Shown here piece after piece: positions 1 to 63,364 of a stretch of 64,000 nucleotides of DNA. The position numbers and the translations under genes are program-made. How positions within the stretch are numbered: the first letter of the stretch is position 1; each line of letters begins with the position of its first letter. This DNA comes from Rhodothermales bacterium (lineage in GTDB: Bacteria; Bacteroidota; Rhodothermia; Rhodothermales; Bin80). The stretch is taken from contig OY760427.1 of NCBI GenBank assembly GCA_963663495.1, forward strand, positions 5,586,170-5,650,169, written 5' to 3'. Under the pieces are notes generated by a model that made no database searches, was not told the DNA's origin, and saw only the letters and a program-made list of their open reading frames with translations.

Positions 1-713
1 TACTTCCTCGCCGATGTACTTCATACCCGCGGTGCTGCCCTCCGGCTCAACGCGGATCACCTCTCTGGGCAGATGGTCCGGAATCGGCCCGCGCACCGGC
101 TTGTTCTTCCCACGCCGCTTGCGCTTTACCAGGACATACTCCTCCTCCTCGGGCTCAACAGCTACTGGTTCCTCTCCAAACAACCGGCCTTGCTGCGCAT
201 TGTCCGCCGGCGTGTAAGGCTCACTCTTTTTGCCTCAGAGTAGGCGATACGCTTGTTCCAACCTGTCTTCCAGATGGCTAATCTTCGCAGCCAGATCGGC
301 AATTGTCGCAGCCAGATCCGCGTTGTTCTTGGATAGACGATCGGCTTTTTTCTCCAAGCGACGGACCTGTTTTCGCAGATCCTTGTTCTCAGCCTCTTGG
401 TTTCTTAGCCTCTGAAAAAGGGCTTCACCGGCAGGAGAAGAGGGGGAGAAAGATGCCTTGGACCGCATAGTTCATGTACATCTGCGTCCTCCACAATGTT
501 CCGGTTCTTCTCCCCAAAACCCATGTTTTTTGTCCCAAAAGACGCTGATTGCTGCCTGCACTCAGGCGCCTGGACGATAAGCTGCACACCACTCCGAAAT
601 TCCCATATCGGCACACCAAACCCGGCGTATAATCACCTTGCACTAAGCTCTACAAGCGGACTACGCAGACCAATGCTAAGCCCGCTTTACCATGTACTTT
701 ACCGTACGGATAC
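1..713 (-). mobile_element. IS66-family element, left end and 5' part of tnpC (pseudogene; runs off the window start)
   Basis: TIR ATGTACTTTACCGTACGGATAC at 692-713 is the reverse complement of the end at 6339 (1 mismatch). Sequence is near-identical to 6339-7050. Premature TGA after ...EQAYRLL. Confidence 0.9.
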
Positions 714-1373
714 TTCGGCGTCAACGTCAGCGCCGACTTCAAGCGTCTGTGTGGCGACGACAATCAGGTGGCGTTCTCGCGGAGACGCTTGATCACGGGA
801 CGCCGGGATGCCGCTGACCGGATCCAGGATGCGGCTGCGGATTCTCTCAGCCTCGCGCTCTCGTGTTCGTCCGGTCAGAAGCACGACTTCAGGCGGGTGG
901 TCCGTGGCTTTGCCGGATCTGGATGTCAGTTTGTTGTAGACAGCCCTGGCCGTAGCTGGTGTGTTTGCAAACACCAAGCATGCCGCCGGCGCAGATGCCT
1001 GCTCCAGAATAGAGAGGGTTTCCTGCACGAGTCCACTGACGACATCACGATCGCGCGCCATTCTTCTGACTCGGATCGTCTTCGGCGCGTCAAGACGCTG
1101 CCGCACAATGGAATTTGCTTCGTCCTCGGTATCGAGATTGAAGCGGTCTTGAACCAAAGAGTCACCGGTAGCGGTCAGCGACACAACCCGGAGTCTGGTT
1201 CTTGCTCCGGCCAAGAGGGGCCGAACATTGCGCGTGCACTCGCCAAGGTCCGGGACTAGGCGAACCAAATGCTTGGCCAAATGAGCCTCGTCAACAAGAA
1301 GCCGGCCGGACGGGCGGGCGGGAAGCCCATAAAGGACGTTATGCACTCCTCGCGGCCAGAACGGGAGCCGCAC
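714..1373 (-). pseudogene. cas3: Fragment of a type I-G (I-U)-like Cas3 helicase, truncated at both ends
   Basis: SF2 motifs LLVDEAHL, SLTAT, LVFANTPATARAV, LLTGRTRERE and VVATQTLEVGADVDA. No HD domain. Cut by the IS66 end at 713. Confidence 0.75.
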
Positions 1374-2904: not shown

Positions 2905-3534
2905 ATATCCGGTGAAGTACATATTAGCGATGGCATTTACTCTCTCAATTAGAGTAGGTTAGACCGCGGTCCGAAGGTCAATAGGCTGGCGTCGGTTGGA
3001 TGTGTAGGAGTCATAGTACCTAGCAGCGTGTTCGCAGACCCGTACACGGATCTATCTGATGCCCCGGGGCGCCTGTTTAGGGATTTCTATGCCGCTTTCT
3101 TAGCGATAGCTTGCTGCGACTCCTGCTAGGCTTTCCAATGATGAGGCAAGAGTTTAGCCATGTGGCCGGCAGGACATGTCGGAAGACTGCGTAGTACATC
3201 GCTAAGCCATTCAATTGGGTTTACCTCCTGCAGCTTGCATGGCGAGAAGTGCGTACGGCACGGCGGGCGCTGCCGCATGCGACCCCACAAACAGATGATT
3301 CTTCCGGCCCAGTGCTGTCGTACTTCCACGACGATGCACTTCAAACCCGCAGAGCCGCCTTCCGGCTCAAGGCGGATCACCTCTCTGGGCAGATTATCTG
3401 GAATCGGCTCGCGCACCGGCTTCTTCTTCCCAGGCCGCTCGCACTTTACCAAAATAAACTCGTCCTGGTCCTCCTCTGGCTCAACAGCTACCGGTTCCTC
3501 TTCAAACAAGCCAGCCTTGCAGCGCATTGTCCGC
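2905..3534 (-). mobile_element. Internally deleted IS66 remnant (right end plus pieces of tnpC)
   Basis: Degenerate right end ATATCCGGTGAAGTACAT. The C-terminal ...LLPHHWKA region is joined directly to the N-terminal PIPDNLPREVIRLEP region. Confidence 0.85.
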
Positions 3535-4384
3535 CGGCCGTACTCTCAGCGGGAGGATCCTCAGAAGCGGAAAGCCCCTCAAGGATTTTGTCAATGGTGC
3601 GCTTCGCATCGCTGATTTGAACGTGGAGCAACTCAAGTTGCTGGACAGTAACATTAATGCGGTCTGTGGAGGCCTCTACGACCCCCGGGGCAACGGTTAC
3701 GGGCTTGGATCGCAGTATATCCAGAACATCCTCAGCTTTGAAACGCCGTATGCGGTGTTTCTTCAACAACTTGGCTATCGTAGCGTGGCGAACCCGTCGG
3801 GCACGCTCTGGTGTGGAGGCAAGCTTCCAGAGTTCTAGCACCCATGGGGCTGCAAGGTTAACCTTGAGCTTGAGGAACTGCGGGTAGTAGCGCCATAGTT
3901 GCTCCCGCAAACGGTTGGTGCGACTCGTACGTTGGGCCGTAAGCTCGTCGGACATACGTGACCACTCACGCAACCGTACAATCTCGGCATCAAGCGCATC
4001 AAGCGCACGCAGACTATTCGGATCGGTTCGGATGGCGTCCGCCAGTACACGCGCATCTCGGCGGTCATCTTTTGCACCGGCCGGTGAAAACCGATCCCGG
4101 AAGCGATCCAGTTGCTTGGGGTTGATAGAATAGACCTGAAGCCCCCGATCAAACAGACTGTCTACCACGGGGCCGTGAGGAACCTCAATGGCTGCTGCGA
4201 TACACCCCGCATCGCAGCCTGCTATGGCAATGATCCAGTCGAGCAGCTGGCCAAGCCCCTCCCCCGAGTGAGGAAAGGCTCTCTCGCCAAGGACGGTACC
4301 GTCCTTGGCAAGCACGCAGGCTTGGTGGGACTCGGAGCCCCAGTCAATGCCTGCGAAGATGAAAGGTGAAGGGATTGTGGGCAT
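3535..4384 (-). pseudogene. IS110-family recombinase, C-terminally truncated
   Basis: ATG at 4384. DEDD RuvC-like motifs FAGIDWG, AIEVPHG and KDDRRDARVLA. The C-terminal Tnp domain is replaced by IS66 sequence at about 3535. Confidence 0.9.
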
Positions 4385-4388
4385 AGTT

Positions 4389-6311
4389 AGTGTTTGCCAG
4401 AAAAAGGTAGGAGGGCTGAAAAACGGCGAAACAAGGCCGTTTGATACTCGTTCTATCCACCTGTAAGCGTTACGGTTACAGATGGATATGAGCCATACCG
4501 TATTTGCACATTGCAGATTATTCAGCCAGCGTGTCTCTAACGAATGTTTGGCCAAATCCTTCTGTTTCGGGCGTTTTCATCGATATAAGGCCCCTTGGGG
4601 CCGATTATTCATACGATTAATACCATGCGGATTGTAGAGGATACACAGTTTAAGCTCGGGCAGGTCCCCATTGAAGAGATGACCTTCCACCCCAAAGACC
4701 GGGACGATATACCGGCAGTGCTAAAAGGTCTGCAGCACCTGTATTGCGACCCAACGGCTCGGCAGAAGATCTTTGAGATCCTGGAGACGCAGTTGCTTCC
4801 GAATATTGATTTGCAGCGTGGTCGTCCGGGGATGGCACTTTGGCGCGTCTTTGTCTTGGGGGTATTGAAGCAGGCCCTCAACTGCGACTTTGATCGTTTG
4901 AGGAGCCTGGCCGCCAATCATTTGGAGGTGCGCCAGATGCTGGGGCATACGAATTTCTGGGACGAGCCTGTCTATCAGCTGCAGACCGTTATTGATAACG
5001 TGAGCCTGCTAACAGCGGACATCCTGAAGCAGATCAACGATGCGGTGGTGGCTTGCGGTCACCGATTGGTAGAACAGGAGCCAGAGGAGCCGCTTCTTGG
5101 CCGGGTTGATTCGGCGGTGGCCAAAGCGAATGTGGAGTGGCCTACGGATGTTCGTTTGTTGTGGGAATCGATGCGGTGCCTGATTCGGGAGTTGCATTGC
5201 GCATGTGAGGCGCACAGCCTTGCGGGCTGGCGCAAGGCTGTGTACTGGAGTCGTACCTTGAAGAAGGCCTTCAACCGGGTGCGTACGCACCGTCAGTGGC
5301 GTGATGAGTCGAAGGTGAGAAAGTATGTGAAGATGTGTCGTGTTCTGATTGAGCGTGCGGAGAGCAGTGTCAGCGTGTTGAAGGAGAAAGACGCGGATCT
5401 TGAGGAGGTGTTGCGGTACTTGGCAGATGCACAAAGGCAGATAGATCAAGTAGATAGGCGTCTATTGAAGGGGGAGGTGATTCCGCATGATGAGAAGGTA
5501 TTTTCGATACATGAGCCGCATACTCGTTGGATCACCAAGGGGAAGGCGGGGGTGATTGCGGAGTTGGGTCTGCCGGTATGCGTGCTGGAGGATCAGCATC
5601 AGTTGATATTGTGGCATCAGATACTGCACGAAGGGGTGGATTCGGATATGATTGTGGGGTTTATGAAGGAAGCGAAGGATCGGTATCCGGCGATCACATC
5701 GTGCAGCATGGATAAGGGGTACTCATCGGTAAAGAACCGTAAGGCGCTGGAGCCGGTGTTGGACACGGTGATCATGCCGAAGAGGGGTAAGTTGAGCAAA
5801 GCGGACAAGGAGAGGGAATCCGATCCGAAGTTTGTGGAGGGTCGTCGTCAGCATCCGGCAGTGGAGTCGGCGATCAACAATTTGAATCATCGGGGCCTGG
5901 GTTTGATACGGACCCGTGGCAAGGAAGGCTTTGTTCGAACGGTGGCGCTGGTAGTGGTAGCGGCGAATGTGCACCGTATCGGGCAGATAGTGAAGCGGAG
6001 CGAGGAGCGACGAAGGCGGTGCGAGCAGGCCCGCAAGCGCGCGGCGTAGGTACTCGCGCGAGCGTCTTCAGCACAGAATCAAGGTAGCCTGCAAGGGCGA
6101 GAGGTCAACGTATGTTCATGCCTCGCTGATGGACGACAAAAACACGTCTGATCAACGTCAAAACCCTAGGATTGCCGGCGTGAGCGGACAAAGTCGGCAC
6201 CGTTACCGTCGAAAAATCCTTGCTGACTTGTCATTCCGATCCCCAATTCGAATTCCAGCCCCCCACTCAGCCAAGAGTCGCTCGCAAGACCATACTTTTC
6301 TGGCAAACACT
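4389..6311 (+). mobile_element. ISNCY-type insertion sequence, complete
   Basis: Perfect 16-bp TIR AGTGTTTGCCAGAAAA at 4389-4404 and 6296-6311. 4-bp duplication AGTT at 4385-4388 and 6312-6315. Confidence 0.9.
4625..6049 (+). CDS. DDE transposase (ISNCY/IS5-like)
   Basis: Intact ORF with GRPGMALWRVFVLG N-terminal block and acidic motifs RVDSAV, SMDKGY and VESAINNL. Family assignment by recall. Confidence 0.85.
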   Translation: MRIVEDTQFKLGQVPIEEMTFHPKDRDDIPAVLKGLQHLYCDPTARQKIFEILETQLLPNIDLQRGRPGMALWRVFVLGVLKQALNCDFDRLRSLAANHLEVRQMLGHTNFWDEPVYQLQTVIDNVSLLTADILKQINDAVVACGHRLVEQEPEEPLLGRVDSAVAKANVEWPTDVRLLWESMRCLIRELHCACEAHSLAGWRKAVYWSRTLKKAFNRVRTHRQWRDESKVRKYVKMCRVLIERAESSVSVLKEKDADLEEVLRYLADAQRQIDQVDRRLLKGEVIPHDEKVFSIHEPHTRWITKGKAGVIAELGLPVCVLEDQHQLILWHQILHEGVDSDMIVGFMKEAKDRYPAITSCSMDKGYSSVKNRKALEPVLDTVIMPKRGKLSKADKERESDPKFVEGRRQHPAVESAINNLNHRGLGLIRTRGKEGFVRTVALVVVAANVHRIGQIVKRSEERRRRCEQARKRAA

Positions 6312-9099: not shown

Positions 9100-11421
9100 T
9101 TATATGAACCCAGATGAATTCCCGTGCGAACATGCACTCAATTGTTCGTCTCTTACCTCGTATCCCAATTCGTATCCCAATGTCATTAGGTGTAACCTCT
9201 CTAGGCCACGCCACATGATCTGGTAACCCACCGGTCCATCACGAGTGCGGTTCTGATAACCGCCGAGCACCGCTACGATCAGGATAGCAGCTCCCAAAGT
9301 ACTGGGCTTCGGCAGCTTTACCCGTGCTGCATATCCATCCAAGAATCGCAGCTCCATCTCCGTGAAAAAGACATCCGCGTCCAGCTCCGGCACCTCCCGA
9401 CCCAATTGCACCAAGGTCATGACGCGCCAGGATATCACACAATACATCGTTATTGCTCGCTGCAGACGCAACGAGGTACGCAGACCCAAACGCTCTACCT
9501 TGCACCCGCTCTTGAGCACGCGGAAGAAGTCTTCCACCCGCCACCGCTTGAGATACATTGCCAACACCCGCCGTGCATCCGCTACGCTCCCTACCTCCAT
9601 GCTGGTCAATAGCATCCACTCCACCGGCGGCGCATCCCCCGGAGGCTCCACCTCCAACACATGCACCCCGTACATCACCACCGGCTCCTCCTCGTTCTTC
9701 GGATCCGGCAACAAGAACCTCCCGTAGCGTACCTCCGCATTGACCATCCGGTAACTGCGACCCTTCCGTGCCTGCTTGCGCGCCTGCTTCTTGCGCGCCG
9801 TCACCCGCTGTATCTCTATCTCCACATTCCCCGGAGCCTTACCACTGCGCATTACCGCAAACAGCTTGCGATCATCCAACAGCTTGCGATCATGCTTCGC
9901 TCGTATCAATACCTCCGCCTTACCCTGTCTGCGCTGCTCGGCAAACATAGCAAAGCTGTCCGCCTCCCGGTCCGCAACACAGATCACCTGCGTCTCGCCG
10001 GACAGCTCCTCCGCCGCCTCGCATATATCCTTGAACCCGTCTATCCACTGCTGCGTCCGCGGAGCATGCGGACCCTCCTCCGGATCCTTGAAGCTGCCAC
10101 GCAACACCCCCAACGTCAATCCATCCTCCGTCACCACCAGCGTCGCATGCAACGGCAACCCCAGCGTCTTCGCCGTCGTCTGATTACTCCCTATTACCTC
10201 CAAATCCGTACACGCCGGCCGCGTACTGTACCGCAACTTCGTCGTGTCCTGGATGCATAACACGGTCTCCTGACTACGCATGCGCTCTATCGTACGCCCA
10301 CGATGCGGCGCCAATATGTTCTCCGGCGTTACCGTTTTGTCCTTCTTGCTCTCCAATAACCGGTAATGCCCCTTCACCGCCGCGCGGTCCGCATCCGTAT
10401 GCGCGGTAATGCTGTGGCCTATCACATCGGCCAACATGGACGTACTCTTTACCAGTCGCACAGACAACCGCCTGTCTCCCAATGGCGCTCCGCCAAACTC
10501 CGTTTCGGCCCACTGCGCACTGTCAATCCCCTCGTGCGGATCCCTCACCGGACGCAACTCCTCCTCCGGTTCCCCCAAGGTCCCGCGCCATTCTTTGTCC
10601 AACTCGTATACATACAGCCCCTTGGGATCCTCTTCCTTTGCCTCCTTGTGCCGCTTTCCGCCTGCGGTATGGCCGATCAATACAAAATTGTTCACCTCAA
10701 AACACGCTCCTTCCCCTTGGGGATCCACATACGTTTCGACAACCCAGGGACGGTAACAGTACCGTGCCTGAAAATCATCCGCCAACCGTCTCAATACCTT
10801 ACCCAGTACATGGCTGGCCAAATCCTGACACTGCCCCCGTATCAGAAAACGACTCAAACACACCACACGGTGCAAATGCGCCTTGCGCTGCTCATCACTC
10901 CACGCCATCCAGTGCTCTCTGGGCGCCAGGCACAACGCCGCCGCCGAAAATCCCACCGCTCCCAGGTAACCATGGGCACTGCCTATCAGATAGCGTACCT
11001 GCGCTCCCACAAATGTGGTCGTACGCCTCGGATGCTCAAAGTGCAGCAACGTGTTCCACACCATACGCTGCTCGTCCGTCTCAACCAACTCAATCGTCAA
11101 CCCCCGGACACCGTGTACCGTGCCCGGTAACGCTATCGGATCCGGTACCCGCTCCTCGCGCCTACGCGGTTCCGCCTTAGCCGCATTACAATTCTCGGGC
11201 TTGGGCAACACAATCCTCCCCCGGGCCTCCAACTTCGATAAAGCCTGCGCACAGTTGCTCACCTGCGGTTCGCCCCGTGCATCAACAAACCCGAACTCTT
11301 CACAGACAGCGCGCGCTATCTGCGTGCGAAACCGCCAACGATCGTCGGCAAGAACCCTGTCCAAACGCTCTCCATTGCAGGGAGCGGTGAGCGTTCGTAA
11401 GACCTGACTTCGCTGAAGCAT
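9100..11421 (-). CDS. DUF4338 (DruA-like) domain fused to an IS4/Tn5-type transposase
   Basis: N-terminal VGAQVRYLI/HRVVCLSRFLI/PWVVETYVD block. C-terminal WAETEFGGAPLGDRRL, LCIQDTT, VADREAD and YLKRWRVEDFFRVLKSG (Y-R-E-K). Confidence 0.88.
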   Translation of the reverse strand: MLQRSQVLRTLTAPCNGERLDRVLADDRWRFRTQIARAVCEEFGFVDARGEPQVSNCAQALSKLEARGRIVLPKPENCNAAKAEPRRREERVPDPIALPGTVHGVRGLTIELVETDEQRMVWNTLLHFEHPRRTTTFVGAQVRYLIGSAHGYLGAVGFSAAALCLAPREHWMAWSDEQRKAHLHRVVCLSRFLIRGQCQDLASHVLGKVLRRLADDFQARYCYRPWVVETYVDPQGEGACFEVNNFVLIGHTAGGKRHKEAKEEDPKGLYVYELDKEWRGTLGEPEEELRPVRDPHEGIDSAQWAETEFGGAPLGDRRLSVRLVKSTSMLADVIGHSITAHTDADRAAVKGHYRLLESKKDKTVTPENILAPHRGRTIERMRSQETVLCIQDTTKLRYSTRPACTDLEVIGSNQTTAKTLGLPLHATLVVTEDGLTLGVLRGSFKDPEEGPHAPRTQQWIDGFKDICEAAEELSGETQVICVADREADSFAMFAEQRRQGKAEVLIRAKHDRKLLDDRKLFAVMRSGKAPGNVEIEIQRVTARKKQARKQARKGRSYRMVNAEVRYGRFLLPDPKNEEEPVVMYGVHVLEVEPPGDAPPVEWMLLTSMEVGSVADARRVLAMYLKRWRVEDFFRVLKSGCKVERLGLRTSLRLQRAITMYCVISWRVMTLVQLGREVPELDADVFFTEMELRFLDGYAARVKLPKPSTLGAAILIVAVLGGYQNRTRDGPVGYQIMWRGLERLHLMTLGYELGYEVRDEQLSACSHGNSSGFI

Positions 11422-11788: not shown

Positions 11789-12050
11789 ATGCCTTGGGCT
11801 GCATGATTCATGTGCCTGTCCGCCCTCCACACTGCTCCGATTCTCCTACCCCAACATCCATGGATTTTGTCCCCAAAGGCGCAGGTTACTGACTGCATTC
11901 GGCCGCCCGGAAGATAGGCTGCACATCACTCCGCCATTCCCAGATCGGCACCCCAAACGCGGAGTATGATCACCTTGCACTAAACTCCACAAGCAGACTA
12001 CGCAGACCAACCCCAAGCCTGCCCTACCATGTACTTCACCGGACGCATAC
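11789..12050 (-). mobile_element. IS66 left-end fragment (diverged variant)
   Basis: TIR ATGTACTTCACCGGACGCATAC ends at 12050. Body is similar to the reverse complement of 6339-6600. Confidence 0.85.
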
Positions 12051-13303
12051 CCCGAAACGGTTAGTGCACACCGCAATATCACATACAGGCTGTTGCCCGA
12101 AAGTCGGAGTAACGCCAAGCAACTTGCTGGATTAGCGGGTGCGTGTAGGTTTGTGTGGAATGCCATCCTCGCAGAGCAGAGCGAGGCGTACAAGAAAGCG
12201 AAAGAGGCTGGAGAGAAGCCGCCCTCGGTAAGCTTCTTCTCGCTGGGGAAGCGGTTCACGGCGCTGCGCCGCACGGTCGAGTGGCTACCTGAATACTCCT
12301 TTGGTGTCGTTAGATACACATTGAAATATCAGGCGGATGCATGGAAGGCATTCTTCAAGGAGGGTAAGAGAAGACCGAGATTCCATTCCAGACGTGGTAG
12401 TACGCCTTCGTTCACGATCCCGGATTACGTAAGGGTTCGGGATGGCAAGCTGTATATCCCGAAAGTGGGATATATGGCGCTCCGCAGGCGGGGAGGCAAC
12501 CCGTACCCTGATGGTATACCCGTCAAAGCCACGGTAAAGAAGAACGCCGGCAAAGGGTATGCTGTCATCTGCTACAAGATGGAGGCACCTGTAATAGAGG
12601 ATACCGGCGGTGCTGTAGGCATTGACCGTAATTGCGGGCAGGTCGCTATGGTCTCCACAGAGGGCGATACAAGCATTATCAGACAACCGGATACCAAGCG
12701 TCTTGATGCCAAGTTGAAGCGGCATCAGCGAAGACTGGCGAGACAGAAGAAAGGCTCCAACCGTCGTAACAGGCGGAAGCATAGAATCGCCCGCATACAG
12801 CGCAAGCGTGCTAACGTCCTCAAGAATGCGAACCACCAGGTAAGTCGCAGTATTGCCAATTGCTCCTCAACGGTGATACTGGAGGACCTGAAGATCAAAG
12901 CGATGACATGTTCAGCTAAGGGGACGATGGAGAGCTTTGGCACAAACGTCAAACAGAAGTCTGGCCTCAACCGTGGGATACTGCGAACAGGTTGGGGCCA
13001 GCTGGAACAGATGCTGGGCTATAAGTGCCGCAAGGTGATAAAGGTTACCGCTGCCTATACGAGTCAGCGGTGTTCTGTGTGTGGGCACACAGAAGCGAGT
13101 AACCGTAAGACACGGAGCAAATTCACGTGTATGTCCTGTGGACATGCGGATCATGCAGACCTGAATGAGGCTGCAAACATACTGGCCTCCGGGATTGGGG
13201 CTTCTGCACGGCGAGGGGCGTTCGGGTTACCGACCCCTATGACCCGTGAAATTGATACTAGTGCCTCACTGTGTACAGTTGGTCACTCACGTATACATTT
13301 CCC
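12051..13303 (+). mobile_element. tnpB: TnpB cassette copy 1 (start codon and left TIR removed by IS66; right TIR degenerate)
   Basis: LAGACRFVWN, RuvC motifs GIDRN, ILEDL and HADLN, and a CSVC/CMSC zinc finger. Begins at codon 2 (CCC GAA ACG). The end GTATACATTTCCC (13291-13303) has lost the TAA, so the ORF reads through to 13499. Confidence 0.9.
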
Positions 13304-16922: not shown

Positions 16923-17663
16923 GGGAATTATATACGTGAGTGACCAACTGTACACAGTGAGGCACTAGTATCAATTTCACGGGTCATAGGGGTCGGTAAC
17001 CCGAACGCCCCTCGCCGTGCAGAAGCCCCAATCCCGGAGGCCAGTACGTTTGCAGCCACATTCAGGTCTGCATGATCCGCATGTCCACAGGACATACACA
17101 TGAATTTGCTCCGTATCGTACGGTTACTTGCTTCTGTGTGCCCACACACAGAACACCGCTGACTGGTATAGGCAGCGGTAACCTTCATCACCTTGCGGCA
17201 CTTATGCTCAGCATCCTGATCCAGCTGGCCCCAACCTGTTCGCAGTATTCCACGGTTGAGGCCAGACTTCTGTTTGACGTTTGTGCCAAAGCTCTCCATC
17301 GTTCCTTAGCTGAACGTGTCATCGCTTTGATCTTTAGGTCCTCGAGTATCACCGTTGAGGAGCAATTGGCAATACTGCGACTTGCCTGATGGTTCGCATT
17401 CTTGAGGACATTAGCACGCTTGCGCTGTATGCGGGCGATTCTATGCTTCCGTCTGTTACGACGGTTGGAGCCTTTCTACTGTCTCGCCAGTCTTCGCTGA
17501 TGCCGCTTCAACTTGGCATCAAGACGCTTGGTATCCGGTTGTCTGATAATGCTTGTATCGCCCTCTGTGGAGACCATAGCGACCTGCCCGCAATCACGGT
17601 CAATGCCTACAGCACCGCCGGTATCCTCTATTACAGGTGCCTCCATCTTGTAGCAGATGACAG
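16923..17663 (-). mobile_element. tnpB: TnpB cassette copy 2 (3' half, pseudogene)
   Basis: TIR GGGAATTATATAC at 16923-16935. RuvC and zinc-finger region has an internal stop. 5' half is replaced by the IS66 right end at 17664. Confidence 0.9.
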
Positions 17664-19245
17664 GTATCCGGCCGGTGAAGTACATTATAACCGAGGGTAT
17701 TTACTCTCTCAATTAGAGTAAGTTAGAGCGCGGTTCGAAGGTTTATAGGCTAGCGTCGGTTGGGCGTGCAGGAGTCAAGTACCTGACAGCGTATTCGCAG
17801 ACCCGTACACGGATCTATCGGATGACCCGGGCGCGCCTGTTTAGGGGCTCCTATGCCGCTTTCTTGACGGTAGCTTGCTGCAAGTCCCGACTAGCTTTCC
17901 AATGATGGGGCAAGAGTTCAGCCATGCGGTCGGCAGGATGTGTCGGAAGACGGCGTAGTACGTCGGTAAGCCATTCAATCGGGTTTATCGATTGCAACTT
18001 GCATGTGGCAAAAAGAGCGTACAGTACTGCGGACCGCTGCGCTGCCGCATGCGATCCCGCAAACAGATGGTTTTTTCGACCAAGCGCGATCGCCCGCATC
18101 TGGTTCTCGACCAGATTATTATCGATCTCAACCTTGCCGTCTTCCAGGTAACAAGCCAGCTTCTCCCACCTGTTGAGCATGTACCCCACGGCTTCATCCC
18201 ATCCCGCACTCGGCCGGTGCTCACGACTCTCCTCAAGCCATGGCTTCAACTTCTCCAGTACCGGTCGTGCCTCCTCCTGTCGTACCTCCACACGCCGAGC
18301 CGGACCAGCTCCCAGCTCCCTCCTTACGCAACCCACGCTCTATCGCATACAACTGCCGGATTTCCTCCATTACATGGCGCACCTTCTTGGGCTCCTTTTT
18401 CCTGCAGTCATAAAACTTGCGACGCGCACGCGCCATACATCCAAACAGCGTTATCCCGCCCCGCGTACCAAACGCATCGTACACCACATACCCGTCGGTT
18501 TGCATCGCCCCTCTATATCCGTGCAAGAATTCCCACGGTCCAGCGCGCGCACGGCTCGGGCTGTAATCCATCATCACCACCTTCGCCCGCGGTGCCAGGT
18601 ATACCCAAAGATAGCCGCGATGCGTCTTTCCGTTCTTCTTCGGCTTTTGCACCGGGAATGTTGTCTCATCCACCTGCAGATACCCGCTACGAAGCACCTC
18701 CTTACGCAATGCATCTCCTAACGGACCCAGATACGTCGCTACCTTTGCAATCCAATCCCCCATTGTAGCAGCCGATAGCTTCACGCCATGGGTATAGCGG
18801 CATATGATCGACATATTTGGCTACCGCCAAATACGCCAACAACCCCGGACCCGCCTTCCCCTTCGGTATGACACGCTTCGGCAACGGCGCTATGACCACC
18901 CCCTTGCGAGGCTCTTTGCAGACTACGTACTTCGGCCGCACAATCTGTACTACCCTCGTGAAGCCCGGCACATATTCCAGGTACTCCGTTACTTCCTCGC
19001 CGATGTACTTCATACCCTCGGTGCTGCCCTCCGGCTCAAGGCGGATCACCTCTCTGGGCAGATGGTCCGGAATCGGCCCGCGCACCGGCTTGTTCTTCCC
19101 ACGCCGCTTGCACTTTACCAGGACATACTCCTCCTCCTCCGGCTCAACAGCTACTGGTTCCTCTCCAAACAACCGGCCTTGCTGCGCATTGTCCGCCGGC
19201 GTGTAACGCTCACTCTTCTTGCCAGAGAGTAGGCGATGCGCTTGT
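17664..19245 (-). mobile_element. IS66 copy, right end plus frameshifted tnpC; left end lost
   Basis: TIR GTATCCGGCCGGTGAAGTACAT at 17664. Indels relative to 6584-8221 near 18310 and 18790. Truncated at 19245. Confidence 0.9.
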
Positions 19246-19297
19246 CCTAACTTCGCCATTCCGTAGGTTAGTAACACTACGAAATGGCGAAGTTAGG
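19246..19297. mobile_element. 52-bp miniature element made of IS1634-type ends
   Basis: 15-bp TIR CCTAACTTCGCCATT and AATGGCGAAGTTAGG. The right 31 bp match the IS1634 end at 58449-58479 with 2 mismatches. Confidence 0.7.
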
Positions 19298-43888: not shown

Positions 43889-44715
43889 AACTGTCGGCTC
43901 CAGACATTCTGCACGCCGGGCTGCGCACATCGCTTGCACGCCCCGACCTTGTGCTGTTGATGTATGGCATGCGGACAGCTGTTAGCCTTGCCGTGGCTGC
44001 CAACGTGGCACGTCACTTGGGCGCAATCGTGGATCATACGGGTTTCGGAGCGGAGCTTATGGCGGCAGATCTGGTCTTGTGGGCGGACATCATTGCTGAT
44101 CACCGTTCGTCGTTATTCAGGCTACCGGTGCATCTGTTGTGGCTTCTCCCACTATCTTTTGTCTGGAATGCCGTAGTGGAGGTTGGACTGCCGTACGCTT
44201 TACGGCCCGAACGCCGCTCTTTCTGGCGTGGGGCATGGTGGTATGGAGGTCGGAGCCTGCTCGTTGGTGTGGTGTATTTAATCGTTGCGGTTATAGGGAT
44301 TGCGCTGCTGCTGGTGGTGTCAGGAACGCTGGCTGGCGAGGTCGGCGGCGAAACAGCAAACTTCTGGCTTCTGGCAGTGGTCACGCCCGCGGCCGTGGTG
44401 GTGGTACTGATCGCGGCAGATTATTTGTGCAGTATTGCGCGCGGGAGCGTTGTGTGCCACGATGCGGGCGCGGTGGCATCGTTATTGCGGAGGCATCAGC
44501 CCGGGCTTATGGCGGCATATGCCGTATGGAAGGTCGCGTTGGGCGTTGTCCTTACGGCCTCCATTATCGTGCAAGTGTATCTGGGCGCCGGTGTAGCCTC
44601 CCTAGTGGTGCAGCAGATCCTGTTTCTCGGCGCAGTGGTGTGCGGCTGCGGATGGTACGGAGGCTTGGCGGCGGCGCTGGAGCGTCAATCAGCCGCCCGT
44701 AGTCAGGAACGTTAA
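43885..44715 (+). CDS. Hypothetical membrane protein
   Basis: ATGA overlap with the peptidase gene; several hydrophobic segments. Confidence 0.75.
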   Translation: MKLSAPDILHAGLRTSLARPDLVLLMYGMRTAVSLAVAANVARHLGAIVDHTGFGAELMAADLVLWADIIADHRSSLFRLPVHLLWLLPLSFVWNAVVEVGLPYALRPERRSFWRGAWWYGGRSLLVGVVYLIVAVIGIALLLVVSGTLAGEVGGETANFWLLAVVTPAAVVVVLIAADYLCSIARGSVVCHDAGAVASLLRRHQPGLMAAYAVWKVALGVVLTASIIVQVYLGAGVASLVVQQILFLGAVVCGCGWYGGLAAALERQSAARSQER

Positions 44716-44857
44716 AGAGAGCGGGCGCCCTGGCTTCGGTCAGCGCGATAGCCAGATGACACTTTGCAGGGAGGGGGCTGGTCCCGTTGGCCAAGTATTT
44801 GGAATACGCGCCGAAAAAGACACGGCGCTCCTGGTAGCCGAGCTTTTCAGGGGGGAA

Positions 44858-46125
44858 TTATATACGTGAGTGACCAACTGTACACAGTGAGGCACTTGTA
44901 TCAATTTCACGGGTCATAGGGGTCGGTAACCCGAACGCCCCTCGCCGTGCAGAAGCCTCAATCCCGGAGGCCAGTATGTTTGCAGCCGCATTCAGGTCTG
45001 CATGATCCGCATGGCCGCAGGACATACACGTGAATTTGCTCCGTGTCTTACGGTTATTCGCTTCTGTGTGCCCACACACAGAACACCGCTGACTGGTATA
45101 GGCAGCGGTAACCTTTATCACCTTGCGGCACTTATAGCCCAGCATCTGATCCAGCTGGCCCCAACCTGTTCGCAGTATCCCACGGTTGAGGCCAGACTTC
45201 TGTTTGACGTTTGTGCCAAAGCTCTCCATCGTCCCCTTAGCTGAACGTATCATCGCTTTGATCTTCAGGTCCTCCAGTATCACCGTTGAGGAGCATTTGG
45301 CAATACTGCGACTTACCTGGTGGTTCGCATTCTTGAGGATGTTAGCACGCTTGCGCTGTATGCGGGCGATTCTATGCTTCCGCCTGTTACGACGGTTGGA
45401 GCCTTTCTTCTGTCTCGCCAGTCTTCGCTGATGCCGCTTCAACGTGGTATCAAGACGCTTGGTATCCGGTTGTCTGATAATGCTTGTATCGCCCTCTTTG
45501 GAGACCATAGCGACCTGCCCGCAATTACGGTCAATGCCTACAGCACCGCCGGTATCCTCTATTACAGGTGCCTCCATCTTGTAGCAGATGGCAGCATACC
45601 CTTTGCCGGCGTTCTTCTTTACCGTGGCTTTGACGGGTATACCATCAGGGTACGGGTTGCCTCCCCGCCTGCGGAGCGCCATATATCCCACTTTCGGGAT
45701 ATACAGCTTGCCATCCCGAACCCTTACGTTATCCGGGATCGTGAACGAAGGCGTACTACCACGTCTTGAATGGAATCTCGGTCTTCTCTTACCCTCCTTG
45801 AAGAATGCCTTCCATGCATCCGCCTGATATTTCAATGTTTATCTAACGACAATGTTTATCTAACGACACCAAAGGAGTATTCAGGTAGCCACTCGACCGT
45901 ACGGCGCAGCTCCGTGAACCGCTTCCCCAGCGAGAAGAAGCTTACCGAGGGCGGCTTCTCTCCAGCCTCTTTCGCTTTCTTGTACGCCTCGCTCTGCTCT
46001 ACGAGGATGGCATTCCACACAAACCTACACGCACCCGCTAATCCAGCAAGGTGCTTGGCGTTACTCCGACTTCCGGGCAACAGCCTGTATGTGATATTGC
46101 GGTATGCACTAACCGTTTCGGGCAT
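44858..46125 (-). pseudogene. tnpB: TnpB copy 3, full length but disrupted
   Basis: ATG at 46125. A 17-bp tandem duplication CAATGTTTATCTAACGA (45833-45866) with an in-frame TAA breaks the gene. RuvC D/E/D and zinc finger are retained. The stop TAA lies inside the TIR. Confidence 0.9.
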
Positions 46126-46155
46126 GGCACTGTGGTATATAACTCCCTAATAGAT

Positions 46156-46334
46156 GGCAATTATATAGTATATAGCATGAATACCCACGTGTTGAGTTAT
46201 TTGAAATAATTGCAGTTTGTTCGTGAAAAGCGGGAACCGATTATGAACAACTGGCGAAAGCCATCCTGTCCGCACCACCAAAGCACAAAAAGTAACTCCT
46301 GCGAAAACGCGCGGCATTCAGCCATATAACTCCC
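46156..46334. mobile_element. MITE-like remnant with ISNwi-type ends
   Basis: Ends GGCAATTATATAG and CATATAACTCCC. Second, truncated, inverted copy at 58306-58449. Confidence 0.75.
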
Positions 46335-46643
46335 TTTCAGGGCCAAGCAACCTAGCAGCGTCAGGAGAATCTTCAACCCGAAACGAGTCGTATCCTGATT
46401 GTCGGCTTCGGTCCTGTCCAGAGAGTGCTACGAGCAGGCAAATGGCCAGAACACGGATCAGTCGCGGCGCAGTAGTCGTAAGCCAGTTAATGTGTGGCTG
46501 ACTGCCGCTGTGTTTTGTGACTCAGCGAATGAAGCTGGCACAGGATGAAGATGCAATTGCCAAGCTTTTCAGGCAATTGCCAACGGGTACTATCAAGATT
46601 CCACGAAGATGTATGCACCGGTGGTGCAGCTGGTAGGTGATCA

Positions 46644-58305: not shown

Positions 58306-58449
58306 GGGAGTTATATGGCTGAGTGCCACGCGTTTTCGCAGGAGTTACTTTTTGTGCTTTGGTGGTGCAGACAGGATGGCTTTCGCCAGTTCTTCATAAT
58401 CGGTTCCCGCTTTTCACGAACAAACTGCAATTATTTCAAATAACTCAAC
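58306..58449. mobile_element. Truncated inverted copy of the ISNwi-type MITE
   Basis: Starts GGGAGTTATATGG and is near-identical to the reverse complement of 46191-46334. Cut by the IS1634 end. Confidence 0.8.
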
Positions 58450-60513
58450 CTAACTTAGCCATTTCGTAGTGCTACTAACCCACGGAATTCTCCCGTGGCC
58501 ATATTTGGACCGTTTTTTTCAGGAGCAATGGATGGTGAGATTTACCGGATCGGTTGAAGTTGGTTTAGGGTGGTTTGAATCCCTGATTACCTGGTGTTTT
58601 GCCGCCTTTTTCGCTGCGATCTATCTCGGATCGTTTCCATCGGACGTAGCTCTGGTGGCTCCATCTGGAGTACGCTATCTCAACCGTTGTGAAGGGACCA
58701 TGCGTCATGAGTCTGGAGGCTTCTGGCTCACCGGTGCACTCGCTTCCTCCACATGCTCGGTCACGGTGCGGGTCGCATCCGGATCATACACGTATCCCAG
58801 TACCGCAAAGAACTGTACCATACACGGAGGCAGATCCTGATCCACCTCCGTGATCAGGTACCGATATTGGTTCTTAACCATCTTGGTCGTAATCCGACGA
58901 ATCCCGTTCAACCTGTCTCGGATCGTCGCCCAACTATCATGAATCCCGCATTCCTTGAGTCTGGTGCGAACCAGATGGGCAGCATGATAAGCCAGTACCG
59001 TGATGAACAGATGCCCTTCAATGCGGTCATCTCTGCTGTGGTAGATGGGCCGTAGACCGAGGTCCGATTTCATGACTCTGAATGTGCGCTCAATCTCTGT
59101 AAGTCGCCAGTAGGTTCGTGCAACCTTTTCCACCGACCATCCGGTATGACTGGTCCGAAGCACATACCCTCCGCTGGCCTGGGTGCGACGCGCATGCGAA
59201 GCATGCCGGGTCACCGTAACGGATGCTGCATGCTTGGTGCACTCCTTTTTGCTGACCTCTACCTCATACAGGTGTGAGACCTTCTTGTACTTTTCCTTCA
59301 GACGACCAACCTTTATCGTGACCTTTTCATAGTTCTTCAAGTACCCGGGTTTCGAGAGTCCCTCATGTAGTGTAGTGAGCGCCTTCACAAACTTCTTGCA
59401 TTGGGTTTCAAGGATCTGATCCTCCTTCGCCTGCTTGGCCTCACTGTGCACAAACACGCGCAGTTCCGCATTGTCTTCAACATCTTCAACATCTTTTTCC
59501 TCTTTGGTGATCTTCCAGGCTTTGATCTTGACTCCCCCGGCGGTCGTAAACTGTTGATCCGGCTTGTTTTCGGGGACTGGAGGGGCTTTGGAACGCTCCA
59601 TGGTGATCCAGTCCAGTCCCTGTCCTTTCAGGTACTGTAGATTCTTCTCCGTCGCAATGCCGGAGTCCATAATCACTGTGGGCGTAGCGCCGTTTAGTTT
59701 CTCAATCGCCTCTTTGAGCGTTGCCGGTTCCCCTGCATCGCTCGGCAGGATCTGCACATTGCGGGGGAACCCCGAACCATCCAGGGTGAGCGCCAGCGTA
59801 ACCAACGGACAGTCACTGCGCTTCTCCTTGCTGCGCCCATGCGACAACAACTTCCCTTTCTTCTTGCCGTGGTAATAGGTATTGGTTAAATCATAAAAGA
59901 CGATCGTTTCTTCAAACTGCAATACCGCTTTGGTAATGCCAAAGAGTTTCTCCAGGATCTGATCCATATGCTTATGGATCAGATCAGTGCAACGATAGAG
60001 GGTGTTGAGACTCGGGGGTTCCAAATCCAGAAGCTGCAGAACACTGGAGGTTTTACACAGCCATTTATGCGTTTCTCGTTCACTGCCCGGGTGGAGCATA
60101 CGTCCGACGATCAGCGCACAGCAGAGCTTGACGTGTTTCTCGCAGAAGTTGAGCGAACGTAGCAGTACAGCCAGTCCGAGCTGTTCCAATGTCTGAAGGA
60201 TCAGTCGTTCTCCGCCGACGGTCCGGGAATCGGGATGGGTTGTTTTCTCTGGATCAATGAGGAGTTGCTGATGGGATGTGCGATGGATGTCGTAGCCCTT
60301 GCTTTCGAGATGTGCAACGATGTCGTCGACCGCATTGAGAAAGGCTTCATCATTCTGGAAAGGGAGGATAGCTTTCCCTTTGAGTCGGGCAGTAACGCAA
60401 TGGGTCAGTTCCCCCCACAGACTGCGGGGGATGTTGAAGTTCGGGCCGAGATTAAGGAGGGTGCGGTGTTTGGAGGTACCGTCTTTGCGATAGGATTCGA
60501 TGAGGGCAAAGCT
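58449..60513 (-). mobile_element. IS1634-family element; transposase 58705-60513 lacks its native 5' end
   Basis: LIESYR..RTLLNLG, VFYDLTNTY, GRSKEKRSD, VIMDSGI, IERTFRVMKSDLGLRPIYH and RIEGH motifs. End CCTAACTTAGCCATT. The IS4 arm starts at 60514. Confidence 0.88.
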
Positions 60514-63364
60514 CTGCCCTTCCCCCATAAATCATCCAACACGGTTCGATTGTTCGTCAGTTTTGGTCAACTCTCGCTGGCATGGCTGTCGGAATATCTC
60601 GGGTATTTCGACCTGACAGGTATGGTGTGTGACTTGAGGTGAATAATGCCGTCCTCTCGTGCGGATACGCGATCTCTTCCTGCGCCGCTTCCACTGCCAT
60701 CCTACCACTTCAGGTATTTGACATTTTGCTACTTGTTTTTTATGTTGTGGCATGCTTCAGCGAAGTCAGGTCTTACGAACGCTCACCGCTCCCTGCAATG
60801 GAGAGCGTTTGGACAGGGTTCTTGCCGACGATCGTTGGCGGTTTCGCACGCAGATAGCGCGCGCTGTCTGTGAAGAGTTCGGGTTTGTTGATGCACGGGG
60901 CGAACCGCAGGTGAGCAACTGTGCGCAGGCTTTATCGAAGTTGGAGGCCCGGGGGAGGATTGTGTTGCCCAAGCCCGAGAATTGTAATGCGGCTAAGGCG
61001 GAACCGCGTAGGCGCGAGGAGCGGGTACCGGATCCGATAGCGTTACCGGACACGGTACACGGTGTCCGGGGGTTGACGATTGAGTTGGTTGAGACGGACG
61101 AGCAGCGTATGGTGTGGAACACGTTGCTGCACTTTGAGCATCCGAGGCGTACGACCACATTTGTGGGAGCGCAGGTACGCTATCTGATAGGCAGTGCCCA
61201 TGGTTACCTGGGAGCGGTGGGATTTTCGGCGGCGGCGTTGTGCCTGGCGCCCAGAGAGCACTGGATGGCGTGGAGTGATGAGCAGCGCAAGGCGCATTTG
61301 CACCGTGTGGTGTGTTTGAGTCGTTTTCTGATACGGGGGCAGTGTCAGGATTTGGCCAGCCATGTACTGGGTAAGGTATTGAGACGGTTGGCGGATGATT
61401 TTCAGGCACGGTACTGTTACCGTCCCTGGGTTGTCGAAACGTATGTGGATCCCCAAGGGGAAGGAGCGTGTTTTGAGGTGAACAATTTTGTATTGATCGG
61501 CCATACCGCAGGCGGAAAGCGGCACAAGGAGGCAAAGGAAGAGGATCCCAAGGGGCTGTATGTATACGAGTTGGACAAAGAATGGCGCGGGACCTTGGGG
61601 GAACCGGAGGAGGAGTTGCGTCCGGTGAGGGATCCGCACGAGGGGATTGACAGTGCGCAGTGGGCCGAAACGGAGTTTGGCGGAGCGCCATTGGGAGACA
61701 GGCGGTTGTCTGTGCGACTGGTAAAGAGTACGTCCATGTTGGCCGATGTGATAGGCCACAGCATTACCGCGCATACGGATGCGGACCGCGCGGCGGTGAA
61801 GGGGCATTACCGGTTATTGGAGAGCAAGAAGGACAAAACGGTAACGCCGGAGAACATATTGGCGCCGCATCGTGGGCGTACGATAGAGCGCATGCGTAGT
61901 CAGGAGACCGTGTTATGCATCCAGGACACGACGAAGTTGCGGTACAGTACGCGGCCGGCGTGTACGGATTTGGAGGTAATAGGGAGTAATCAGACGACGG
62001 CGAAGACGCTGGGGTTGCCGTTGCATGCGACGCTGGTGGTGACGGAGGATGGATTGCCGTTGGGGGTGTTGCGTGGCAGCTTCAAGGATCCGGAGGAGGG
62101 TCCGCATGCTCCGCGGACGCAGCAGTGGATAGACGGGTTCAAGGATATATGCGAGGCGGCGGAGGAGCTGTCCGGCGAGACGCAGGTGATCTGTGTTGCG
62201 GACCGGGAGGCGGACAGCTTTGCTATGTTTGCCGAGCAGCGCAGACAGGGTAAGGCGGAGGTATTGATACGAGCGAAGCATGATCGCAAGCTGTTGGATG
62301 ATCGCAAGCTGTTTGCGGTAATGCGCAGTGGTAAGGCTCCGGGGAATGTGGAGATAGAGATACAGCGGGTGACGGCGCGCAAGAAGCAGGCGCGCAAGCA
62401 GGCACGGAAGGGTCGCAGTTACCGGATGGTCAATACGGAGGTACGCTACGGGAGGTTCTTGTTGCCGGATCCGAAGAACGAGGAGGAGCCGGTGGTGATG
62501 TACGGGGTGCATGTGATGGAGGTGGAGCCTCCGGGGGATGCGCTGCCGGTGGAGTGGATGCTATTGACCAGCATGGAGGTAGGGAGCGTAGCGGATGCAC
62601 GGCGGGTGTTGGCAATGTATCTCAAGCGGTGGCGGGTGGAAGACTTCTTCCGCGTGCTCAAGAGTGGGTGCAAGGTAGAGCGTTTGGGTCTGCGTACCTC
62701 GTTGCGTCTGCAGCGAGCAATAACGATGTATTGTGTGATATCCTGGCGCGTCATGACCTTGGTGCAATTGGGTCGGGAGGTGCCGGAGCTGGACGCGGAT
62801 GTCTTTTTCACGGAGATGGAGCTGCGATTCTTGGATGGATAGGCAGCACGGGTAAAGCTGCCGAAGCCCAGTACTTTGGGAGCTGCTATCCTGATCGTAG
62901 CGGTGCTCGGGTGAGCGTGCGGTGAACTGCATCTTGATTAGGTGACGGGTTCTGTATAGCTTACCCGTAGACGTGAGAACCCAGACCCCGGACCGCATGG
63001 TACAGCCCAGACGTACGGCGGAAGAGATGTTTCCGCTGGTAGAGCAGTATAACGAAAGGACCCGGTCCGCAGCGGCGTCTTGCACAGAGCAGGGCATCTC
63101 GTACGGACCGTTGAATTACTGGAGGCAGAAGTATCGCCAGGAGACTGCAGCCGAGGGTTCGTGGATGTAGGCAATGCAGCGCCAAGGGAAGCGGCGCAGG
63201 AAGAGATCGCGTATCCGCACGAGAGGATGGCATTATTCACCTCAGGTCACACACCATACCTGTTAGGCCGAAATACCCGAGATATTCCGACAGCCATGCC
63301 AGCGATACTTGACCATACCTGCGAACAATCGAACCGTAATGGATGATTTATGGGTACAGGGCAG
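60514..63364 (+). mobile_element. Second copy of the DUF4338-IS4 element (non-matching flanks)
   Basis: Arms 60514-60692 and 63187-63364. Flanks GCAAAGCT and CGCTAGCC differ. Confidence 0.9.
60752..62842 (+). pseudogene. DUF4338-IS4 transposase with a premature stop and 3' deletion
   Basis: Near-identical to 9100-11421. TAT to TAG at 62840; the last part of the gene is deleted near 62910. Confidence 0.88.

Follow-up and report, generated by a model that had tools for sequence, protein, structure and literature searches.

A non-autonomous IS1595-family element with a tnpB gene whose terminal inverted repeat probably lies within the omegaRNA scaffold

Three copies (A, B, and C) of an element carrying tnpB, the gene of an RNA-guided nuclease, are located in a 64,000-nt stretch of a Rhodothermales bacterium genome (assembly GCA_963663495.1, contig OY760427.1), which is referred to as the window. 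Copy C (44853–46147, minus strand) most probably (at roughly 70%) is a non-autonomous IS1595 element of about 1.3 kb, in which the terminal inverted repeat (TIR) of the right end is part of the scaffold of the TnpB guide RNA (omegaRNA) and the guide is flanking DNA. The initial annotation of copy C had proposed that the omegaRNA runs into the TIR and that the guide is fixed on this end of the transposon. Covariation supports an omegaRNA that shares sequence with the 3' end of tnpB and extends into the TIR; the fixed guide is not supported. A DDE transposase of the IS1595 family encoded elsewhere would move the tnpB element in trans, using TIRs of about 23 bp and generating AT-rich target site duplications (TSDs) of 8 bp. 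The scaffold would comprise about 125–130 nt, overlap the end of the tnpB open reading frame (ORF), and reach the last base of the TIR. Counted backward from this base (−1), TIR bases −14 to −10 would pair with −49 to −45, and the last six to seven bases with a loop near −110. The guide would be formed by about 16–20 nt of the flank after ...TTCCC, starting with the TSD, and would be different at each insertion. TnpB might then cut the unoccupied target, consisting of a target-adjacent motif (TAM), the TSD, and the right flank, which would favor the copying back of the element.

On the minus strand, positions 44853–44896 read AGTGCCTCACTGTGTACAGTTGGTCACTCAC followed by GTATATAATTCCC. The hairpin, the TCAC, and the terminal 13-mer were present as initially described, on the minus strand and in all three copies, and the 3' part of tnpB, which had been reported as conserved, is 95–98% conserved across A, B, and C. 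The window contains three instances of the 13-mer (16923, minus strand; 44853, minus strand; 46135, plus strand, with one mismatch), compared to 0.05 expected by chance. The copy at 46135–46147 is inverted relative to that at 44853, and the pair forms a TIR; the similarity of the two ends and of the ends of miniature inverted-repeat transposable elements (MITEs; GGGAGTTATATGG) had been recognized correctly. The right-end TIR of copy C (GGTCACTCAC GTATATAATTCCC) covers positions 44853–44875 of the minus strand, with the outer 13-mer at 44853–44865, and the left-end TIR (GGGAGTTATATAC on the minus strand) covers 46135–46147.

A genome scan using the protein as query yielded 22 loci, 19 of them in metagenome-assembled genomes (MAGs) of Rhodothermales, most of which harbored several copies. 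Intact relatives are 1.27–1.45 kb long and are bounded by TIRs of about 23 bp. Their left ends read GGGAATTATATACGTGAGTGACC, and the TCAC falls inside the TIR. In every copy, the similarity ends exactly after ...GTATATAA(T/A)TCCC, and the flanks diverge immediately after CCC. Perfect AT-rich direct repeats of 8 bp, for example, TATAATTG, AAACTAAT, and ATTGGAAA, flank nine out of 12 elements. Relatives with 44–62% protein identity (L018 from a Paracoccaceae MAG, L146, L147, and L228–L235) end in a similar TIR and show 8-bp TSDs where both ends are intact; L146, L229, L232, and L235 (50–62% identity) add further cases of TIRs with TSDs, and the ends of L147 and L236 are degenerate. TIRs of 23 bp together with perfect TSDs of 8 bp are the signature of a DDE transposase. 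They are not that of the single-strand mechanism of IS200/IS605 elements, including the IS1341-type that carries only tnpB; this mechanism creates no TIRs and no TSDs (PMC13565253). The subterminal hairpins and the TCAA-like right end of IS200/IS605 elements were not found either, since the TCAC lies inside the TIR and its position is variable among the relatives (TCAT, TGAT, TAAT, TTAC, TTTC, ATCC). An IS605-type reading, with TCAC as cleavage site and the 13-mer as conserved target, was rejected because 8-bp TSDs flank the 13-mers. An insertion amid a palindromic target (GGGARTTATATAC/GTATATAAYTCCC) was rejected for the same reason; moreover, TTATATAC is found only at the three ends. TnpBs of 33–35% identity (L149, L150, L154, L157) belong to IS605-type elements with hairpins at both ends and the right end GATGTCAA.

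Copy C seemingly has no TSD of its own. The repeat TTTCAGGG (plus strand; 44845–44852 and 46335–46342) flanks copy C together with an adjoining 179-bp MITE (46156–46334; ends GGGAGTTATATGG and CTATATAATTGCC), and an 8-bp spacer (TAATAGAT, 46148–46155) separates the two. Copy C and the MITE were transposed as one composite, bounded by the outer end of the MITE and the right end of the tnpB element. Because both are enclosed by one TSD, one transposase recognizes both types of ends. A second MITE-like element with related ends is located at about 58306–58450. In three copies from two genomes (L001 and L002, about 3466–3747; L010, about 3445–3745), a module of about 270 bp (GTGTGCCACGAAAATACAT…GGTCGTATATTAATCCT) interrupts the right TIR after GTATATA. 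These three copies lack a simple TSD, and the module is either nested or serves as an alternative right end.

The family of the transposase was identified by a metagenome scan with the TIR as query, which returned many elements with the same TIR and a perfect 8-bp TSD. About 25 of these encode a protein of about 310 amino acids that matches DDE_Tnp_IS1595 (E 2e-40 to 3e-45) as well as Zn_ribbon_IS1595 and NCBIfam transpos_IS1595 (E 1e-52). In ten complete elements, the same ends flank an IS1595 transposase gene together with an 8-bp TSD; other elements are MITEs of 230–500 bp or carry passenger genes. The ISNwi1 group of this family, as listed in ISfinder and described by Siguier and coworkers in 2009, reportedly has ends of the type ggnnatTAT and 8-bp TSDs, and some of its members are said to contain passenger genes. 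Like IS1595 insertion sequences, whose TIR here flanks DDE_Tnp_IS1595 genes, MITEs, and passenger genes alike, the tnpB element has a TIR starting with GGGAATTAT and an AT-rich 8-bp TSD. Unlike them, it encodes no DDE_Tnp_IS1595 protein with N-terminal zinc ribbon, and it carries the gene of an RNA-guided nuclease, the RNA of which probably makes use of the TIR. Since the transposase is absent from the tnpB element but encoded in elements with the same TIR, the tnpB element is, as judged from its sequence, a non-autonomous derivative of the IS1595 family with tnpB and the omegaRNA as its only cargo.

Various other cargo was observed between the same ends. One element (L125, 836–1811) contains solely a gene for a DHH/DHHA1 (DHH phosphoesterase-like) protein. 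Two others carry a transposase gene plus a second gene, which encodes an uncharacterized protein of 364 amino acids in L086 (914–3239) and resembles a DNA methyltransferase, as judged by eye, in L132 (2759–4846). A second TnpB lineage (391 amino acids, 32% identical) is encoded in L084 (1865–3074), an element of 1.2 kb that shares the IS1595 TIR and in which GGGAC at −114 is complementary to the terminus GUCCC. This TnpB may have been captured independently by IS1595 ends.

The omegaRNA scaffold was deduced from an alignment of 25, later 29, right ends of relatives with 44–96% protein identity, with 500 shuffles and slid partner strands as controls. In the proposed structure, 95.4% of the cells are paired and 13 of the 27 pairs are changed on both sides. 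None of the 500 shuffles reached the observed values, and slid partners were only 26–55% paired. The nucleotide conservation of the right end far exceeds the need of protein coding. A covariance model of the scaffold, a check proposed in the initial annotation, matched only the copies A, B, and C in the window (E about 1e-35), in accordance with a structured omegaRNA that covers the 3' end of the gene and reaches the transposon end. Rfam covariance models gave no match at E ≤ 1 in the region 44500–46500. The scaffold of copy C spans 44853–44980 on the minus strand (model R1, 134 bits, E 4e-35) and overlaps the last approximately 40 codons of tnpB, the stop codon of which (TAA) is located within GTATATAA. 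It contains a small hairpin (44955–44971, minus strand) with the loop GGGAUU at 44960–44965, in which a C-G pair is changed to G-C in three sequences. This is followed by a three-tier stem (CACGG.. GGGG.. UCGG-GUUA-CCGA ..CCCC ..CCGUG; 44908–44949, minus strand) that is 96–100% paired and has seven pairs with compensatory changes. Its innermost tier varies by lineage (UCGG/CCGA, UCUC/GAGA, UGGC/GCCA, UAGC/GCUA, UUGC/GCAA, UCGC/GCGA). The terminal hairpin (AGUGCC-UC-ACUGU-GU-ACAGU-U-GGUCACU; 44869–44896, minus strand) is hypervariable in sequence among the lineages, but the hairpin is retained.

Two relatives, L230 (2357–2496) and L235 (2171–2310), read about 16 tail codons in another frame as a consequence of a 1-nt deletion and a 1-nt insertion about 50 nt apart. 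RRRGLALLHGEGRS replaces LASGTGASARRGAF in the peptide, and the nucleotides and helices are kept, which points to the RNA rather than the peptide as the target of selection. We also considered whether the covarying helices might be features of the DNA, such as subterminal hairpins or repeats bound by the transposase. IS200/IS605 ends do use DNA hairpins, and the loop motif GGGAUU equals the first TIR bases, which would be compatible with an additional transposase-binding site. However, DDE elements with TIRs generally need no such hairpins, and no match to the scaffold model, apart from weak ones at the TIRs themselves, was obtained in autonomous IS1595 elements or in MITEs that share the TIR. 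The helices are confined to the 3' end of tnpB, and the covariance model aligns the homologous scaffold of the IS605-type relatives to the IS1595-type scaffold. A purely DNA-level function of the helices is hence extremely improbable.

The structure that connects the scaffold with the TIR is helix E, which closes the last domain. Its 5' strand AUAC(A/G) at −49 to −45 (AUACA in copy C, 44897–44901, minus strand) pairs with (C/U)GUAU at −14 to −10 inside the TIR (CGUAU, 44862–44866, minus strand). About eight variants were found (AUACA:UGUAU, AUACG:CGUAU, AUAGC:GCUAU, AUGGG:CCCGU, AUCGA:UCGAU, ACCGA:UCGGU, AUUUG:CGAAU, and GUGCA:UGUAU). The fifth position of the helix is mismatched (A-C) in copy C and paired in most relatives. 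In the 29 right ends, helix E is 90% paired with a covariation of 0.458 versus 0.186 in the shuffles (0/500 reached the observed value) and ≤0.09 in slid controls; RNAalifold recovered it independently. Helix E is followed by three unpaired bases and the terminal heptamer AAUUCCC of the element (−7 to −1; 44853–44859, minus strand). This terminus is complementary to the loop GGGAUU at −113 to −108, and the two strands form a candidate pseudoknot (87% paired, modest covariation). The loop and terminus read GGGACU:AAGUCCC in L018, L147, L230, L231, and L235, GGGGUU:AAUCCCC in L229, and GGGAUU:AAAUCCC in four copies. The homologous loop of the IS605-type relatives reads GGGCAU and is complementary to AUGUC within the terminal GAUGUCAA; in both kinds of elements, the loop is thus complementary to the element's own terminus. 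In the solved ISDra2 complex, a pseudoknot of −5 to −3 with −105 to −103 directly precedes the guide (PMC10097598). The matching geometry and the complementarity in the IS605-type relatives strengthen the case for the pseudoknot, and AAUUCCC and GGGAUU most likely form such a guide-adjacent pseudoknot.

Helix E, the candidate pseudoknot, and the divergence of the flanks after CCC together indicate that the scaffold gives way to the guide where the TIR ends. For copy C, the guide is predicted to be CCCUGAAAAGCUCGGCUACC (44833–44852, minus strand), which begins with CCCUGAAAAGCUCGGC... and has the TSD as its first 8 nt; the exact first guide base is one that we infer from this boundary. The alternative mentioned in the initial annotation, a TIR absorbed into the scaffold with a guide that starts in the flank at the TSD, is therefore favored by the aligned sequences. 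A boundary after ...TTCCC, which the annotation had named as speaking against a guide in the TIR, is what structure and flank divergence indicate computationally. Its preferred version, with a scaffold that ends at TCAC and the guide seed GTATATAATTCCC, would imply that the constant part of the RNA stops before GUAUAUAA, that the guide consists of GUAUAUAAUUCCC plus a few TSD bases, and that TnpB binds or cuts the TIRs of its own family, with excision or occlusion, for example, as the outcome. Such a guide would be in line with the invariance of the 13-mer and its position directly after the hairpin, with the scaffold of the IS605-type relatives ending in GUCAA, and with cleavage 15–21 nt from the TAM, which would fall at the junction of TIR and TSD. 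However, CGUAU at −14 to −10, the 3' strand of the covarying helix E, includes GUAU, the first four bases of this proposed guide, and the terminal bases are complementary to the loop of the candidate pseudoknot. The presumed TAM varies within one genome (CTCAC, CTCAT, CTGAT, CTAAT, CTTAC, CTTTC). Due to the symmetry of the approximately 23-bp TIRs, both ends have the same 5' neighbor and would be hit either both or not at all. Nuclease-dead TnpB-like repressors with fixed guides, termed TldR, have reportedly been described by Wiegand and coworkers in 2024 and would provide the precedent for the fixed guide that was initially proposed. In contrast to TldR proteins, which have lost RuvC residues and are encoded at immobile single-copy loci, the TnpB investigated here has invariant catalytic residues, the element is mobile and multicopy with TSDs, and the fixed sequence is structured. 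The right ends gave no evidence of a guide directed at the element itself, and a guide within the TIR is highly unlikely.

Several observations weigh against a scaffold that includes the TIR, or against parts of this proposal. The folding energy of single sequences is not better than that of shuffles (z = −0.6), for which reason only comparative evidence was used for the scaffold. In the pseudoknot, only two pairs and five cells are changed on both sides, and eight of 500 shuffles reach its score. The most common type of loop and terminus has a U-U mismatch at one position, L228 (GGGCUU) and L233 (GCGACU) each weaken one pair, and a register slip of 1 nt pairs the strands equally well. The position of the boundary is itself deduced from structure and flank divergence. 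An IS1595 transposase was detected neither in the element nor elsewhere in the window, nor in the DNA flanking the related loci. Finally, cut-and-paste transposition creates a double-strand break in any case, which makes the benefit of homing less obvious (PMC13565253). Both the homing role and the TAM discussed below are what we infer by analogy to known TnpB systems.

In its domains and conserved residues, the protein is a typical TnpB. It matches Pfam and NCBIfam models (guided_TnpB, E 2e-68) and comprises the HTH/REC region, a RuvC domain with D-E-D, and a zinc finger. D193, E279, and D371 as well as the four cysteine residues of the zinc finger are invariant in 40 family members, and intact genes for proteins of 404–476 amino acids are found in relatives down to 49% identity. 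One intact family member is located in L006 (2078–3487). The best natural relative with a solved structure is ISDra2 TnpB (E 2e-23). The 90%-identity cluster of the intact 416-amino-acid protein P0001 contains 212 member sequences of 241–426 amino acids, many of them fragments, and nearly all of the 40 members that were read are located on one 5.92-Mb contig (5,919,514 bp). For a TnpB, an expansion of this size is unusual; in the main text of a survey, no TnpB clusters above about 30 copies are reported (PMC10691335). Two further TnpB subfamilies, P0009 and P0011, are encoded on a contig of equal length.

The RNA might also stop at the transposon end and contain no useful guide; TnpB would then be a decaying passenger or have another role, such as a cofactor of the IS1595 transposase, and the element would be a MITE-like IS1595 parasite. 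All three copies in the window are broken, the 212-member cluster includes many fragments, and DDE transposition does not need a nuclease (PMC13565253), which is what such a loss of function would lead one to expect. The intact genes with invariant catalytic residues and the selection on the scaffold at the RNA level, seen in the covariation and the frame-shifted tails with conserved nucleotides, argue against this, and we regard a guide-free TnpB as unlikely.

If the guide starts at the TSD, the 3' end of the TAM must lie directly before the left TSD. Among the 18 tnpB elements for which the TSD could be assigned with confidence, 17 have G (often GG) at this position, and A is usually the first base of the TSD. 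Only seven of the 18 are G-equivalent at the mirror position on the right (p = 0.0009). The same bias appears in autonomous IS1595 elements without tnpB, where the end upstream of the transposase gene has the G in seven of ten cases versus one of ten at the other end (p = 0.02; L040, L041, L058, L060, L086, L095, L105, L117, L118, and L127, oriented by the transposase gene). An orientation-dependent asymmetry of the target is unusual for a DDE element. As the autonomous elements share it, the bias is attributed to the target choice of this IS1595 subgroup and is not creditable to TnpB. The G in the left flank was therefore rejected as a footprint of TnpB and retained as a candidate TAM only. 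TnpBs of IS605 elements adopt the target of TnpA as TAM; by analogy, the present TnpB may have adopted the target base of IS1595.

The protein resembles ISDra2 TnpB (PDB 8H1J, 8EXA; PMC10097598) in its HTH/REC, RuvC D-E-D, and zinc-finger regions. The proposed RNA resembles the ISDra2 omegaRNA in a scaffold over the 3' end of the gene, several stems, and a candidate pseudoknot between a site about 105–113 nt upstream and the bases preceding the guide. ISDra2 has neither TIR nor TSD, moves as single-stranded DNA via the Y1 transposase TnpA, and has a right end with a hairpin and TCAA. In the elements described here, which have IS1595 TIRs and 8-bp TSDs, the terminal hairpin with GUCAA is replaced by the TIR. 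TnpB genes within elements with inverted ends are known in outline: the main text of the survey by Altae-Tran et al. (2023; PMC10691335) describes DDE-associated TnpBs (branches DDE-1 to DDE-6) and solo tnpB copies with the ends of transposase-bearing elements that were moved in trans. As in these branches, tnpB is situated in an inverted-repeat element, the 3' end of the gene is close to the transposon end, and mobilization would occur in trans. In contrast to the main text of the survey, the fit of the scaffold to the TIR is analyzed here, and the cluster of 212 members exceeds the ceiling given there. A review from 2026 lists ISL2, IS630, and IS1031 as DDE partners of TnpB (PMC13565253). 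No text linking IS1595 to TnpB as its carrier was found in the main texts, including that of PMC10691335. The new parts are thus IS1595 as partner family and the proposed refitting of the scaffold to the TIR.

A parallel to this arrangement is found in Fanzor RNAs, in which the TIR or the TSD is inside the scaffold (PMC10711439). In Fanzor1 and Fanzor2*, the TIR is likewise part of the scaffold, the guide lies beyond the transposon end, and the boundary was redefined for a different transposase (PMC10711439, PMC13565253). Fanzors are eukaryotic or viral, and their short fixed TSDs (e.g., TA) are incorporated into the scaffold or the TAM. The TSD of the IS1595-type elements is 8 bp long and variable and therefore cannot be a fixed part of the scaffold. 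Further differences are the bacterial host, the glutamate residue at the canonical position, and the size of TnpB (about 410 amino acids).

A tentative scenario, to which we give somewhat less than even odds, is that a TnpB/omegaRNA module was refitted from an IS605-type end to the IS1595 TIR, with the pseudoknot on the TIR terminus, a guide of TSD plus flank, and the target G/GG as TAM. If this were true, a cut-and-paste TIR element would have gained RNA-guided homing, and the presence of over 200 sequence variants of one cluster in a single genome might in part be due to this. Nearly all that is understood about bacterial TnpB comes from IS200/IS605 and IS607 elements, in which scarless excision explains the benefit of a homing nuclease, whereas the tnpB genes in DDE-type inverted-repeat elements have been listed rather than dissected. 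The family described here is a testable case of a scaffold adapting to swapped ends, with a TIR segment as helix strand and the terminus as likely pseudoknot strand. It is paralleled by the eukaryotic Fanzors and raises the question of which TAM and which benefit apply in the case of a long and variable TSD. In addition, the family offers compact nucleases of about 410 amino acids with a defined scaffold boundary.

On viral contigs, a scan with the single protein gave no match, and an alignment-based scan returned mostly distant IS605-type TnpBs without an IS1595 TIR. One viral contig (L148) encodes a TnpB with 52% identity and retains the scaffold (2632–2773, 79 bits; loop GGAAACU). No recognizable IS1595 TIR was found downstream of this scaffold, which may belong to an immobilized copy.

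All three tnpB copies within the 64-kb window are broken relics. In copy C, a perfect 17-bp tandem duplication (caatgtttatctaacga twice; 45833–45866, minus strand) causes a frameshift and splits tnpB into a 5' piece of 89 codons with the HTH_OrfB_IS605 domain (45856–46125, minus strand) and a 3' piece of 325 codons with the OrfB_IS605 and Cas12f1-like TNB domains (44858–45835, minus strand). Copy A (12051–13303, plus strand; scaffold 13176–13303) contains one unit of this sequence only. An IS66-family end has eliminated its left end together with the start codon, the stop codon is missing, and the right end reads GTATACATTTCCC. Of copy B (16923–17659, minus strand; scaffold 16923–17050), only the 3' half is left, the 5' half being cut off by an IS66-family element. 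The IS66-family ends (…GTACTTCACCGG…) that truncate copies A and B are located at 12000–12050 and 17660–19290, respectively, and the IS66 transposase gene at 17660–19290 (LZ_Tnp_IS66, zf-IS66, and DDE_Tnp_IS66 domains) is frameshifted.

Further ORFs were noted in the window. An ORF of 773 amino acids (9100–11421, minus strand) encodes Tn5/IS4-type transposase domains together with an N-terminal region resembling DruA. Its inverted partner, an ORF of 696 amino acids (60752–62842, plus strand), is linked to it via repeats with 94% identity at both ends; the domain scan covered the former ORF. An ORF with a Cas3-like C-terminal domain is located at 699–1373 (minus strand), and a gene for an IS110-family (DEDD) transposase at 3488–4555 (minus strand).

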